A stretch of 61,509 nucleotides of DNA, counting the filler, from an uncultured Methanosarcinales archaeon (lineage in GTDB: Archaea; Nanobdellota; Nanobdellia; Woesearchaeales; CAZPJY01), in NCBI GenBank assembly GCA_964587045.1. It is 5 parts of 4 records of this genome, joined end to end, with 100 filler letters (N's around TTAATTAATTAA, not from the genome) between each part and the next. Parts side by side here need not be neighbours in the genome. Positions count along the whole stretch, not along the records: positions 12,952 to 26,822 come from CAZPJY010000014.1; 4 more parts are not named here. One strand, given 5' to 3'. Below are positions 22,676 to 26,822 of the stretch, piece by piece (the stretch's first letter is position 1; the number at the start of each line of letters is the position of its first letter). Under the pieces are notes generated by a model, which had not been told where the DNA came from, ran no database searches, and saw only the letters and a list, made by a program, of their open reading frames with translations. Position numbers and translations under genes: made by a program.

Positions 22676-22703
22676 ATTGAGCATGATTCCTGTTATGTGT
22701 TTT
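22676..22703 (+). repeat. dif-like site 1 (degenerate left arm): ATTGAGCATGA TTCCTG TTATGTGTTTT
   Basis: Read directly; sits at the GC/AT boundary. Confidence 0.75.
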
Positions 22704-22827
22704 TTCTGAAAGAAAAAATGCTGAAGCGTAGGCACAGTATGACACAGAGAAAAAGTAGATCTTTTGATTAGAAAAATACTCCTTATGAATAGTAATGTTT
22801 ATATAACAAGTTCTAATTCCGATTTGA

Positions 22828-23382
22828 ATGGGAACACGAATGCTTACAAACCGAGAGTTAACTGATTTAATGGGTTTGAAATTAAATATAGAAATTCTTT
22901 CTGGTGACAACAAAGAGATGGTTGAAGGGTGTCTTGCTCCTGCAGAGAATGGGATTGAAGCATGTGTGTTTTATCATCATGGAAGTGAAACAAAATCAAC
23001 CCTTGCTCATGAAATAGTTGTCGCTCATTATCCAATTTACTCAAAAGAAAGATATATGGCTGTAAATAAAATATTGAAGAAGTTTGCAAAAATTGTAGAA
23101 GGAGCTAAGGAAAAAGGTGCCTATGAACCATTTGATTTTGATGCTTTAAATAAACTTCCCGCTGAAATATGTTATCCATCTCCTTCTAAAGGAGAGATTT
23201 GGCAACCTTCAATTAGATTATATAGGGGAACACCTGTGTGGGATGCAAATGGGCAGTTGAGAATGAATTTTGTTGGGACATCAACAACCAGCTATTTGTC
23301 CTTAGCTTATAAATCGCATAATAGGGGTGCAGAAGCACTAAATAATGCAGGTATAGCGACAACTACCTCTATACTTCAATAA
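22828..23382 (+). CDS. cassette A: hypothetical protein
   Basis: 184-aa ORF; TTTATATA at 22798-22805. Confidence 0.75.
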   Translation: MGTRMLTNRELTDLMGLKLNIEILSGDNKEMVEGCLAPAENGIEACVFYHHGSETKSTLAHEIVVAHYPIYSKERYMAVNKILKKFAKIVEGAKEKGAYEPFDFDALNKLPAEICYPSPSKGEIWQPSIRLYRGTPVWDANGQLRMNFVGTSTTSYLSLAYKSHNRGAEALNNAGIATTTSILQ

Positions 23383-23447
23383 CAACCACAGATCTTAGGA
23401 TTATTTTTTACCTATTAGTGTGATCTTATCACTTTTTCTGGAGTAAT

Positions 23448-23475
23448 ATTGCACATAATTCCTGTTATGTCTCCC
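23448..23475 (+). repeat. dif-like site 2: ATTGCACATAA TTCCTG TTATGTCTCCC
   Basis: Read directly. Confidence 0.85.
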
Positions 23476-23611
23476 GACGACTGAAAGGAGGAGAGCGCAG
23501 CGGGGCACAATCCGAAGGATTTTGGGTTCAGAATTCGGGTGTATTTAATATTAACTTCCAAGTAGTAAATTATTCGAAATGTTTATAAATATTAGATTAA
23601 TAACTACCAAT

Positions 23612-23980
23612 ATGAGAGAAGCAATTACCCAATTATTTCAACAAGTTGGAAAAGATTATCAAGATAGAGGAGTTGCTGAATTTGATTTACATCAAGGTCA
23701 CGATGTTCATGCATTTTATAGACTTTCAGGTTATCCATCTAAAGTAGTTCATGTTCAAGGTTATACGGGAATGAGTTCTGACAATGAAGCAAGAGTTTGG
23801 GCAAGAATGATGGATTATGACCTAATGATGAAAATAAGAGGGAGTGGAGGAGTTTCAGTAGGAAACGAACATGAAGCAACAACAGAACAATTTCCAAATT
23901 TTGAAAATGGAATAATGATTCCATATGATTCAAAAGTTCTTGAAGATAAATTGGCGGAAAACGTTCCAGAGTTGAAATAA
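23612..23980 (+). CDS. cassette B: hypothetical protein
   Basis: ORF from MREAITQ; TTTATAAA at 23582-23589. Confidence 0.75.
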   Translation: MREAITQLFQQVGKDYQDRGVAEFDLHQGHDVHAFYRLSGYPSKVVHVQGYTGMSSDNEARVWARMMDYDLMMKIRGSGGVSVGNEHEATTEQFPNFENGIMIPYDSKVLEDKLAENVPELK

Positions 23981-24017
23981 ACGCCCCGCTTCTTATAAGT
24001 GTTAAGTCTTTTTCTCA

Positions 24018-24045
24018 ATTGAAACTAATCCTTGTTATACGTTTT
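24018..24045 (+). repeat. dif-like site 3: ATTGAAACTAA TCCTTG TTATACGTTTT
   Basis: Read directly. Confidence 0.85.
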
Positions 24046-24107
24046 TTCTGCAAGAAAAAAATCACGGAGTGAAATGGAGCGACAGTATGACGCAGAGAGC
24101 TTTTCCG

Positions 24108-24605
24108 TCACTTGTTGAAAAAATTAACACATTCTGGAATTACTTTTAGAAATTTATCTGGACTATTTTTTAACTCATTAAGTAATTCTTCTTTTGAAAA
24201 CCACTTAATTTTTTCAACTTCCTCTTCTTGAATTGTAAACTCTTCGATTTTTTTATCGACTAAGGCAAAAAACCATTGAGTAAAATGTTTATGTTGTCCC
24301 TCGTGAAAATGATGAAACGACTTTTGAAATTCTTGATTCTTTAAACCAATCTCTTCTTCAGCTTCTTTAACAATATTGGATTCATAAGATTCTCCTTCAT
24401 CAATAGTTCCTGCAACCGCGGGACCCCATTGACCTGGATTATTCTTTTTATTGAATGATCTTTGTGCAAGGAGAATCTCACCTCTTGAATTTTGAATCCA
24501 TAAAGCTGAAACTCTATAAATATCTGATTGGTTTAAAGATCCTCTTTCTTTAGAACCTATAATTTCATCATTTTCATTAACAATAATTATTTTTGCCTTA
24601 GACAT
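24108..24605 (-). CDS. cassette C: NUDIX hydrolase (IDI/YfcD-like)
   Basis: LAQRSFNK..PGQW..AVAGTIDEGESY....KEAEEEIG. Confidence 0.9.
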   Translation of the reverse strand: MSKAKIIIVNENDEIIGSKERGSLNQSDIYRVSALWIQNSRGEILLAQRSFNKKNNPGQWGPAVAGTIDEGESYESNIVKEAEEEIGLKNQEFQKSFHHFHEGQHKHFTQWFFALVDKKIEEFTIQEEEVEKIKWFSKEELLNELKNSPDKFLKVIPECVNFFNK

Positions 24606-24664
24606 ATATTTTTACAATTCAAGAAGTAATATAAATTTATCGAAAGGAAAAGCTCTCGAGTAAT

Positions 24665-24692
24665 ATTGCGTATAACCGATGTTATGTCCTTT
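24665..24692 (+). repeat. dif-like site 4: ATTGCGTATAA CCGATG TTATGTCCTTT
   Basis: Read directly. Confidence 0.85.
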
Positions 24693-24794
24693 TCCCATAC
24701 GGAGTGTGGGAAAACTGCGTCCGCAGAGTCGGGAAAGGACAATTCCATCTAGCACGAAGTGCAATTAAGAAAACAATTAAAGGCAAAAACAAAA

Positions 24795-25481
24795 TTATTT
24801 ATACATGGAAACAACTTTTTCTAGAGCGGGAAGATGGTCGGGTCTAAAGTTAAGTTCTTTTCTTATATCTTTGCCAACTAAAGAACCAATAGGAACCCAT
24901 CTTTGAGATGCAATCTCATCTGAACCTCTTACATGACCTATTCTACAGACATAATATTCACACATCTCTGACTGTTTATACTTATCTTGTCCAGAATTAT
25001 CTATAACAGGAACTTTCATTATAAACTGTAGATTTTTTGGGTCAATACTTATGCCCTGTTCTTCTTGAAAACCTCTTAATACAGAGTCAAAATAACTTTC
25101 CCTAACATTTACATGTTCAGAAACACTTACATCACTCATTGAAGGAAATAAATCTTTTTTAGAAGATCTTGTTGGAACAAGTATTTCATCATTATCATTA
25201 ATAATGAATGCGTTTGCACCTCTATGATAAAATCCTTTTAACCTATCATCTCCATGACATTCTTTTCTATAGAAAACAAGGTCATTTCCTTCGACGTTAT
25301 AAGGTCTATCGTTTTGATCAAAAATTTGGAACCATTCGTATTTGCTACCTTCTACCTCCTGTTCTTTATCACCTAAGGCAGTATCATCCATAGAAGTAGC
25401 TAATACTAAGCCATTATCTTTTACAGAAAAATTAAGTGTTCTACCTGCAATATTTTCCAATTCTTTTTTTGTGATATTCAT
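24795..25481 (-). CDS. cassette D: NUDIX hydrolase (IDI-like) with N-terminal extension
   Basis: YHRGANAFI...TRSSKKDLFP...SEHV..RESY...RGFQEEQG. Confidence 0.85.
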   Translation of the reverse strand: MNITKKELENIAGRTLNFSVKDNGLVLATSMDDTALGDKEQEVEGSKYEWFQIFDQNDRPYNVEGNDLVFYRKECHGDDRLKGFYHRGANAFIINDNDEILVPTRSSKKDLFPSMSDVSVSEHVNVRESYFDSVLRGFQEEQGISIDPKNLQFIMKVPVIDNSGQDKYKQSEMCEYYVCRIGHVRGSDEIASQRWVPIGSLVGKDIRKELNFRPDHLPALEKVVSMYK

Positions 25482-25557
25482 TTATTGTTGTTACTATTTA
25501 GTAGTATATAAATATTTCGATTTTGTTTTTGCCTAACCTAGTTTTTGTCCTTTCCCG

Positions 25558-25585
25558 ATTGAAACTAATCACTGTTAGTTTCTTT
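25558..25585 (+). repeat. dif-like site 5: ATTGAAACTAA TCACTG TTAGTTTCTTT
   Basis: Read directly. Confidence 0.85.
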
Positions 25586-25740
25586 TACCCTACGAAGTGG
25601 GGTAAAATTGCGTCCGCAAAGTTGAGTTTGAGTTTTCCTTCCACGTTTTACATTCATTTTTATATCAAGGGTCGCCCTAATAAATAGTAACTAAATAGTA
25701 GTAAATAGTAAAAAAGTTTATAAACTATAGTATTTACACT

Positions 25741-26289
25741 ATGAATATGGCATTAAGTGAACACTTTTGGAATAAATTAGGAGGATATGTTAGAGCAGGA
25801 AATAGAGTTGCCGAGCTATACCATGGCGAAAAAGATGATATTCTTAGGGGATTAGCTGAAATTGTTTCAGATGAAGGAGTGGTATATGGTGTTGATCATC
25901 TAAATCCATTTGAAAGACATAATAATATGCGAGAATTGCAGAAATTATCAAATGTCAGATTATTGAAAGCATCAATTCCACCACTGCCAGCTGAAGTTTC
26001 TAATTTGGATGCTGTTTTAATCAGAGAATTTATTTGGACTTATCCTCTTCCTTATAATGGTTCTGAAAATCCACAAACATACGAAGCAATTGATACAGCT
26101 GTAAATGTTGGGGGACATTTTATTTTACATTTAAATCCTACAGAACAAGAGAATGAGAAACGAAAGCACCCAATGTATCAAGATACTATGAACCGGCAAC
26201 TTCCTCATTTTCAAAAAGTATATAATCGCGAGGATTTGATAGTCTATCAAAAAACTTCTTCTAGGACATTAAATAGGGCGACCCAATAA
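25741..26289 (+). CDS. cassette E: class I SAM-methyltransferase-like fold protein
   Basis: GNRVAELYHG...LAEIVSDEGVVYGVD...LDAVLI...VGGHFIL resembles a degenerate MTase. Confidence 0.6.
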   Translation: MNMALSEHFWNKLGGYVRAGNRVAELYHGEKDDILRGLAEIVSDEGVVYGVDHLNPFERHNNMRELQKLSNVRLLKASIPPLPAEVSNLDAVLIREFIWTYPLPYNGSENPQTYEAIDTAVNVGGHFILHLNPTEQENEKRKHPMYQDTMNRQLPHFQKVYNREDLIVYQKTSSRTLNRATQ

Positions 26290-26310
26290 ATTAGAGAAAA
26301 CTCAAACTCA

Positions 26311-26338
26311 ATTGAAACTAACCCTTGTTATGTGGGGA
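26311..26338 (+). repeat. dif-like site 6: ATTGAAACTAA CCCTTG TTATGTGGGGA
   Basis: Read directly. Confidence 0.85.
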
Positions 26339-26372
26339 GACTGCAAGTCGACCGACCGAAGGGACAGTTGAA

Positions 26373-26768
26373 CTAAGAAAATTTACTAGCATACTCAATC
26401 CAATTTTTATGATGTAAAGATAATTTATCCGCCACTTGCATTATTCTACCATAAATTGTTGTAGGTGTCTGTTTTCTTCTATGATTGAGAATACAATCTG
26501 AAATTTCTTCTTTAAAGGATTTAAATTCAGGATACTTTTGCAAAAATTTATCTAAATATTGAAGGCCTAGTTCATGATGTTTATCTTTATCATCTTTCCT
26601 TCCAATATCATGAATCCAACCTGAGATATCAAAAACAATTGGATTTAGATCAGTATTCTTAATCATATTATTACAACAATCTATTACACAAGCAGAATGA
26701 ATTTTTATTTTTTCATCATTCCATTCTTGTTCAAAAAATTCTTTTGCTTTTGAATATGCGTCACTCAT
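26373..26768 (-). CDS. cassette F: HD-domain phosphohydrolase
   Basis: H...WIHDIG...HH...H...ADKL. Confidence 0.88.
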   Translation of the reverse strand: MSDAYSKAKEFFEQEWNDEKIKIHSACVIDCCNNMIKNTDLNPIVFDISGWIHDIGRKDDKDKHHELGLQYLDKFLQKYPEFKSFKEEISDCILNHRRKQTPTTIYGRIMQVADKLSLHHKNWIEYASKFS

Positions 26769-26811
26769 AGAAATTAAATTGTATTTAAGGTATATAAATT
26801 TTCTTAGTTCA

Positions 26812-26822
26812 ATTGCACATAA
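26812..26822 (+). repeat. dif-like site 7, left arm only (ATTGCACATAA; contig ends here)
   Basis: Identical to the left arm of site 2; followed by Ns. Confidence 0.75.

Follow-up and report, generated by a model that had tools for sequence, protein, structure and literature searches.

Hairpin leaders of an archaeal gene array as a probable part of an integron-like cassette recombination site

We analysed a stretch of 61,509 nucleotides (nt) from the genome of an uncultured archaeon of the order Woesearchaeales (assembly GCA_964587045.1), referred to here as the window and composed of contig pieces joined via 100-nt linkers, in which an array of small genes, each accompanied by a leader of short hairpins, occupies the end of contig C14. 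Our results indicate that these hairpins probably belong to the site at which mobile gene cassettes, organised in an integron-like array, recombine.

The array covers 4.1 kb at 33% GC, compared with 53% for the genome, and GC content drops from 0.50 to 0.33 at site A, its far end. Six sites, each with an 11-nt arm, a 6-nt centre and a return arm, start at positions 22676, 23448, 24018, 24665, 25558 and 26311, and the arm of a seventh, at 26812, is cut by the contig end. A cassette (A to F in the window) begins with the 6-nt centre of a site and closes with the 11-nt arm of the site that follows, with a single gene between each two sites: two code for NUDIX proteins, one for an HD-domain protein and three for proteins without an assigned family. 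Three of these genes lie on the + strand and three on the - strand, an AT-rich, TATA-like box being recognisable by eye upstream of each.

Loop polarity and pairing of the cassette ends

The initial annotation listed eleven hairpin motifs with GNA triloops in these leaders. All eleven are found in the sequence (at 22700, 23495, 23509, 24042, 24062, 24690, 24715, 25583, 25608, 26339 and 26356), as are two leader families, one in cassettes A and C and the other in D and E, and the exchange of a C-G for a T-A pair at the foot of the second D/E hairpin. Most of the loops read GNA, the second D/E hairpin (24715 and 25608) having instead a 4-nt loop, and the stems of the motifs at 23495 and 26356 are merely 2 bp long. 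Throughout the window array, GNA and TNC triloops (the latter being GNA loops read on the opposite strand) number 9 and 4, none of the four TNC loops falling in a leader. Because the window alone is too small a sample, relatives were collected by running a strict site pattern, drawn from this genome, on 301 genomes of the order. A first set of 179 sites comprised 40 regions with clustered matches together with the loci of this genome and the recombinase loci; a second, of 163 sites in 76 loci, came from an independent metagenome scan.

Among 172 unique leaders from related genomes, GNA triloops outnumbered TNC triloops by 93 to 7 with stems of at least 3 bp and by 69 to 2 with stems of at least 4 bp, while dinucleotide shuffles of the leaders gave 16:9 and 4.9:2.6, respectively. 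The corresponding ratios in 151 further leaders from metagenome contigs were 65:10 and 49:2. When counted by leader family, 29 of the 66 families favoured GNA, 1 favoured TNC and 36 were tied; the genome-wide control was balanced at 445:445. GNA loops occupy the + strand regardless of gene direction, as originally claimed (35:3 for + genes, n = 52; 33:0 for - genes, n = 58), so that the hairpins do not follow the genes as terminators were expected to do. A C-G pair, described in passages of PMC3201870 as a stable closing pair of GNA loops in DNA, closes 106 of the 167 GNA triloops. RNA-type tetraloops are scarce in the leaders (5 GNRA and 0 UUCG with stems of at least 3 bp), and an Rfam search returned no match in the array.

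The two ends of a cassette are complementary to each other in a cassette-specific manner. At least 10 of 12 Watson-Crick matches between a cassette's own ends were found in 75 of 130 consecutive-site pairs, compared with 4 of 130 when the neighbour's end was used. In the first set, 3.04 of the 4 variable arm positions pair with the cassette's own far end and 1.81 with the adjacent arm, the permutation control yielding a mean of 1.54 and a maximum of 1.97 (5000 permutations). In the second set 40 of 87 pairs were validated, with values of 3.52 and 1.16 in 25 of those. Covariation that is cassette-specific and affects variable positions is expected of pairing rather than of protein recognition, and the leader hairpins are best described as side arms of a larger predicted fold formed with the far end of the same cassette.

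When the + strand is joined into a circle, the predicted fold displays an arm ending, at the crossover, in a pyrimidine·G closing pair with a 4-nt loop, side hairpins bulging out between positions 8 and 9 of the arm's partner strand, and a gene-ward stem with a median of 14 bp. The TAA:TTA tip is present in 86 of 110 predicted folds, and all three loops (the tip and two side hairpins) in 74 of them. Gene-less units of 76-116 nt retain the same frame, and in one of these (locus L112) a C-GAA-G loop takes the gene's usual place. The return arms lie 6 nt apart in the circle and no second GTT core occurs past the hairpins. A canonical attC hidden in the leaders was also considered and rejected, since the base after AGT covaries with the far end and no GTT is conserved.

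Folding energies of both strands, a comparison suggested in the initial annotation, favoured the + strand in 60 of 70 cases with DNA parameters but also in 63 of 70 with RNA parameters; energies therefore cannot tell DNA from RNA. The proposal of a folded single + strand as the working DNA substrate is supported by the strand bias of the loops and by the covariation, the folding itself being predicted from sequence. The claimed excess of G·T mismatches in the stems, on the other hand, was retained in part: it stands at two conserved T·G positions and not at variable mismatches, with 43 G·T versus 29 A·C (p = 0.12). Inside leader hairpins the mismatch counts were 11 and 6 (p = 0.33), and a general G·T bias was rejected after four tests, none of them significant. 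In 70 of the 75 cassettes validated in the first set and 40 of the 40 in the second, AGT lies opposite a conserved ATT, which gives T·G on the + strand; the end-pairing search was anchored outside this ATT, and the opposite bases were still AGT in 110 of 115. A T·G pair closes the crossover loop in 94 of 110 cassettes, its G being preset by the seed pattern and the preference for T over C not.

Recombinase, crossover and proposed mechanism

At the start of contig C37 of this genome, a cassette end and a terminal site are followed by the gene of a 283-residue tyrosine recombinase with an intact R-K-H-R-H-Y catalytic set, the terminal site lying ~120 nt upstream of the gene. The same terminal site occurs at the end of an array on contig C3 and before a decayed recombinase copy on contig C19. 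The end of C19 and the start of C37 carry near-identical cassette ends and terminal sites, and the C19 recombinase copy contains stops and frameshifts. The best matches of the C37 enzyme are IntI4, XerA and XerD. The IntI insertion near patch III is missing (residues 177-206 span residues 177-250 of IntI4, ~44 residues fewer). Against the integron integrase model TIGR02249 the enzyme scores 184.9 bits, in two stretches and below the cut-off of 265, and its best model score, with archaeal XerA, is 193.6 bits, below the cut-off of 220. Its closest named relatives come from Woesearchaeota and Pacearchaeota, which points to a probable Woesearchaeota-like host.

The terminal site, attI-like or dif-like and with its own distinct second arm, precedes the recombinase gene by 150-250 nt in 10 related loci inspected by eye; over all arrays it mostly lies 150-270 nt upstream of the gene. 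Its centre starts with C in 16 of 19 sites and never ends in G, which leaves no homology for a second exchange. Recombinases were ranked by protein similarity alone, avoiding selection on arrays; the resulting 66 loci leave out the query, its own genome and two unpublished genomes, and one of them is identical to a previously examined locus. In a quick tree that holds no IntI or named XerA row, 44 of the 66 grouped with array-linked enzymes (54 rows; Shimodaira-Hasegawa-like approximate likelihood ratio test, SH-aLRT, 82) and 22 fell in a sister XerA-like group. A site arm was found at most 450 nt upstream in 28 of 44 array-type versus 3 of 22 XerA-like loci (p = 1.7e-4), and a full cassette site in 10 of 44 versus 0 of 22 (p = 0.024); among these 10, one could in fact represent the terminal site, and in many loci the contig stops just upstream. 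In bacterial relatives of the recombinase, crude searches based on the site profile, on a loose pattern resembling attC or on repeats identified no comparable upstream sites, and no array was seen by eye at a Burkholderia plasmid locus. At locus L183 (G084:C1), a symmetric dif-like 11-6-11 site lies 73 nt upstream of an XerA-like gene, and half of this site is similar to the far arm seen in the cassette terminal sites. Two other tyrosine-recombinase-like genes are present in this genome, one cut by a contig start (G000:C24:2-526) and grouping with bacterial proteins in the quick tree, the other (G000:C10:7931-8359) with a divergent active-site region.

Three cassette pairs that are near-identical (at least 98%) yet stand in different contexts indicate where the crossover lies; one of the three involves a tandem copy on contig C3 of this genome. 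In each, the upstream centre is kept and the downstream centre differs; a fourth pair is ambiguous. Given that the upstream centre travels and the downstream one changes, the cut falls after TAA on the + strand. TAA is followed by T in 95 of 110 cassettes and by C in 11, and by C in 16 of 19 terminal sites. An 87% identical protein to that of cassette D occurs in genome G192 among different neighbours, and other cassettes are common to G279 and G164, and to G292 and G193. Sites face a single direction (1 opposite among 179 in the first set and 0 among 163 in the second); of 115 cassettes, 58 carry their gene on the - strand, 52 on the + strand and 5 have no open reading frame of 60 residues. 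In contigs from sequencing runs, leader frames are reused with other cargo and loose ends cluster at sites. Leader frames were covered far deeper than cargo genes in run X4, so that many other cassettes appear to carry the same frames. A single site pattern compared with viral contigs gave 0 matches.

Two further regions of this genome may be mentioned here. A second array (G000:C3:54119-56360, locus L004) contains a tandem duplicate cassette and a 34-nt mini-unit, and ends in a copy of the terminal site followed by a uvrC-like gene, with no recombinase. The low-GC contig end G000:C28:1-2500 bears a site at 700 (-) and, at ~1240-1320 on the opposite strand, a degenerate site and leader.

We propose that a cassette would move as a single-stranded + strand circle, the counterpart of the integron bottom strand, folding into a recombinase arm, usually two GNA side hairpins and a stem toward the gene. 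The recombinase would cut after TAA on both partners, the folded arm and the terminal site as a duplex, only one strand would be swapped, with a single base of microhomology (cassette G, target C) sufficing, and replication would resolve the resulting junction. The GNA hairpins might both stabilise and mark the correct strand, the role of extrahelical bases in attC. As cassettes seemingly carry their own archaeal promoter, their genes can face either way. A broader and more tentative proposal is that of a second, independently built class of gene capture, common in Woesearchaeota-like archaea, which could combine a Xer-sized enzyme devoid of the IntI insertion, a one-armed four-way circle of single-stranded DNA (ssDNA), exchange between its loop tip and a double-stranded target by way of a three-way junction, and DNA-specific GNA mini-hairpins, bulging from the binding arm, as a strand and direction signal.

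Small-genome archaea are thought to depend on gene gain, and little is known of their means of capture. The site described here leads to a sharp prediction on the use of folded ssDNA by a tyrosine recombinase devoid of the IntI helix, and bears on the open question of the origin of integrons from Xer enzymes, discussed in parts of PMC4792948. If the broader proposal is true, the system would constitute a living model of the intermediate stage linking Xer enzymes to integron integrases, and would offer a compact tool to insert ssDNA cargo.

Alternative explanations

Several observations weigh against assigning the hairpins to a cassette recombination site. Of the four positions that recombinases usually occupy, one remains vacant on a site made up of a single arm and a loop, and we know of no tested precedent for such a site. 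The leaders are mutually related, raw counts thus exaggerating their independence, and the mean energy gap between strands is merely 1.5 kcal/mol. The ungapped end-pairing filter was failed by 55 of 130 and 47 of 87 pairs; these failures, left out of the pair counts, include missed sites, bulged stems (cassettes A and C) and decayed units (cassette B), and the arms of cassettes B and D pair poorly. Variable mismatches have no significant G·T bias (p = 0.12), and at the two conserved positions T·G might reflect contacts with a protein instead of wobble pairing. The signature of a circle with joined ends was detected at 0 of 153 metagenome sites (76 loci), a weak test in which the pattern held one arm type and all returned contigs exceeded 1 kb. 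Neither a joint at the crossover nor a bridge over the contig end was found in contigs from four sequencing runs. Finally, the window array and the recombinase are on separate contigs, physically unlinked in the assembly, and the cassette clade has an SH-aLRT of merely 82 in a quick tree.

The main rival is a two-armed fold, or a hairpin-fusion chemistry, which we consider unlikely. It retains the same cassettes and enzyme but takes as substrate a two-armed folded site, formed in the array when site n pairs with its neighbour n+1 and leaves a 6-nt bubble, or else a cruciform extruded by a circle of double-stranded DNA. Excision would then proceed much like the resolution of hairpin telomeres, and insertion would run this reaction backwards by hairpin fusion, or follow a CTX-type exchange. 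The end covariation supports such a site equally well, and the outer TAA/TTA cores pair between neighbouring sites too. Its chemistry also has parallels: hairpin fusion is described in passages of PMC9111995 as a known reverse reaction of telomere resolvases, and CTX, according to parts of PMC4792948, uses a folded stem with a Xer enzyme that has no I2 helix. However, a unit-length circle has a single site, too few for the two-armed stem that insertion would need, the terminal site resembles an ordinary double-stranded two-arm site with a distinct second arm and not a hairpin, and the best matches of the enzyme are IntI4 and XerA.

Double-stranded dif-like modules represent a less probable explanation, in which ordinary two-strand Xer-type recombination, or a Tn916-like reaction with mismatched centres, would move the cassettes, the inverted ends being protein-binding sites and the hairpins by-products. 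We judge it improbable. The 11-6-11 layout is that of dif (as given in passages of PMC8371274), and the enzyme, without the IntI insertion, obtains its top score, below the cut-off, from the archaeal XerA model (193.6 of 220 bits). In contrast, such modules do not account for the cassette-specific covariation at variable positions, the strand bias of the loops, the different centres of cassettes and target, or the near absence of sites in the opposite direction (1/179 and 0/163).

We give very little credence to the leaders being transcription terminators or structured RNAs. T runs are present on both strands in leaders A and C, a stop to read-through might be a side job, and RNA folding likewise favours the + strand. 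Nevertheless, the position of the hairpins and the strand of their loops are independent of gene direction, A-runs are no commoner with - genes (15/58) than with + genes (18/52), GNRA and UUCG loops are rare, Rfam has no match in the array, and the fold requires the far end of the cassette. It is just as hard to credit that the hairpins, a kind of ssDNA structure that HUH enzymes do use, are substrates for an HUH nuclease (of the IS200/IS605, REP or rolling-circle kind) or serve as a signal for priming, with the tyrosine recombinase as a bystander: one plasmid relative of the recombinase (H6) overlaps an annotation of an IS91-type zinc-binding transposase and some source of single strand is required, but the crossover at the arm/centre border is typical of tyrosine recombinases, the terminal site tracks the recombinase clade, and no HUH or Rep family was found among the six window cassette genes and the flanking genes scanned, no genome-wide HUH search having been made.

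The window array, its distribution and known systems

Site A (22676-22700, +), with its 11-nt arm, 6-nt centre and 8-nt return arm, forms the far end of the array, and its arm (22676-22686) is probably a leftover of the original target site. Cassette A (22687-23458, +, 772 nt) has leader hairpins at 22700-22733, a bulged stem between 22736-22760 and 23423-23450, a return arm pairing with 23451-23458 (7/8 plus one T·G) and a gene at 22828-23382 (+) without Pfam or NCBIfam family. The ends of cassette B (23459-24028, +, 570 nt; leader ~23473-23535; gene without family at 23579-23980, +) pair poorly, with 4/8 in the arm and no end stem, and this cassette is a hybrid or decayed unit. Cassette C (24029-24675, +, 647 nt) bears hairpins at 24042-24060 and 24062-24072 and a NUDIX gene at 24108-24605 (-); its bulged stem (24084-24106 with 24646-24667; arm 7/8 plus one T·G) was read off the sequence, the computed fold having stopped short.

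In cassette D (24676-25568, +, 893 nt), hairpins at 24690-24714 (one T·G) and 24715-24726 are followed by a stem of 24727-24742 with 25545-25560, the arm pairing at merely 5/8, and by a NUDIX gene at 24795-25481 (-). Cassettes B and D have an identical return arm at the start and an identical non-matching arm at the end, and could possibly be hybrids generated by exchange at another position. The cleanest four-way fold in the window is that of cassette E (25569-26321, +, 753 nt), with hairpins at 25583-25607 (one T·G) and 25608-25619, a stem of 25620-25637 with 26296-26313, an arm of 8/8 and a gene without family at 25741-26289 (+). Cassette F (26322-26822, +, 501 nt) ends exactly at the contig end and carries mini-hairpins at 26339-26349 and 26356-26362, a stem of 26366-26385 with 26795-26814, an arm of 7/8 and an HD-domain gene at 26373-26768 (-). 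The 100-nt linker between contigs C14 and C22 (26823-26922; linkers of the same layout occur at 2069, 12852 and 56762) follows; the DNA to its right need not be adjacent in the genome, so the array is incomplete. Elsewhere in the window, at 42-339, two Rfam tRNA matches of 106-116 nt were missed by ARAGORN and are probably intron-bearing.

The strict site pattern matched in 101 of the 301 genomes of the order, two unpublished ones among them, and at least three times in 27, which do not include those two; the reversed pattern reached that number in 3. Arrays are present in a sizeable share of the order. One locus (L042), labelled Methanosarcinales and therefore outside the small-genome archaea, holds a cassette site and this type of recombinase, through transfer or misbinning. 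Two features that define integrons are absent, and searches based on them would probably miss these arrays. No published description of the system was found in a search made largely without subscription papers and without supplements. The supplementary attC lists of Ghaly et al. might include some of these sites. By term counts, a review of archaeal tyrosine recombinases does not speak of cassettes or DPANN.

Three precedents had been put forward for the leaders at the outset; the integron fits best and CTXphi less well, and nothing was noted that points to HUH enzymes, no HUH search having been made. CTXphi shares folded ssDNA (predicted here), a Xer-type enzyme without I2 helix and tandem build-up at a dif-like site. 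It differs in that the recombinases here appear to form a dedicated group apart from 22 XerA-like proteins (SH-aLRT 82, quick tree), that the window cassettes hold NUDIX, HD or family-less genes with no phage or replication gene seen among them, and that one arm and a loop are found where the CTX stem mimics a full double-stranded site. In Acinetobacter pdif modules neighbouring sites are inverted, whereas opposite-strand sites amount here to 1/179 and 0/163. XerA/dif (PMC8371274; PDB 4A8E, 5HXY) resembles the present system in its 11-6-11 layout and protein size; unlike in XerA/dif and pdif, centres vary here, sites are direct repeats, cassette ends covary and several target copies exist per genome. 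The telomere resolvases TelA and ResT (PMC9111995) share tyrosine chemistry at a hairpin tip, with hairpin fusion given in parts of that source as the known reverse reaction, but belong by best matches to another protein family; a gene cassette is involved here, and its partner is apparently a double-stranded site.

With integrons the likeness extends to a recombinase gene beside a terminal target site and a one-way array (in relatives, and on contig C37 here), to a putative exchange between one folded strand and a double-stranded target, to a crossover after AA with a putative base of microhomology, and to small, low-GC cassettes common to several genomes. According to passages of PMC4792948, the bottom-strand cut of integrons falls within AAC, matching the + strand cut proposed here after TAA. 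Archaeal integrons are stated in the accessible text of Ghaly et al. (2022, PMC9668308) to have both the IntI insertion and the attC layout, and parts of Smyshlyaev et al. (PMC8138268) describe a subgroup of integron-like recombinases, with incomplete conservation of the insertion, to which the present recombinase may belong. The enzyme studied here is without that insertion; there is no L box or inner stem, and the crossover, located in attC where the stem begins, lies here at the tip of a loop; each cassette end supplies part of the stem, and entire hairpins bulge from the arm; and genes face both ways with TATA-like boxes of their own. The system would function like an integron, yet differs in the two features that define one, the IntI insertion and the attC layout.

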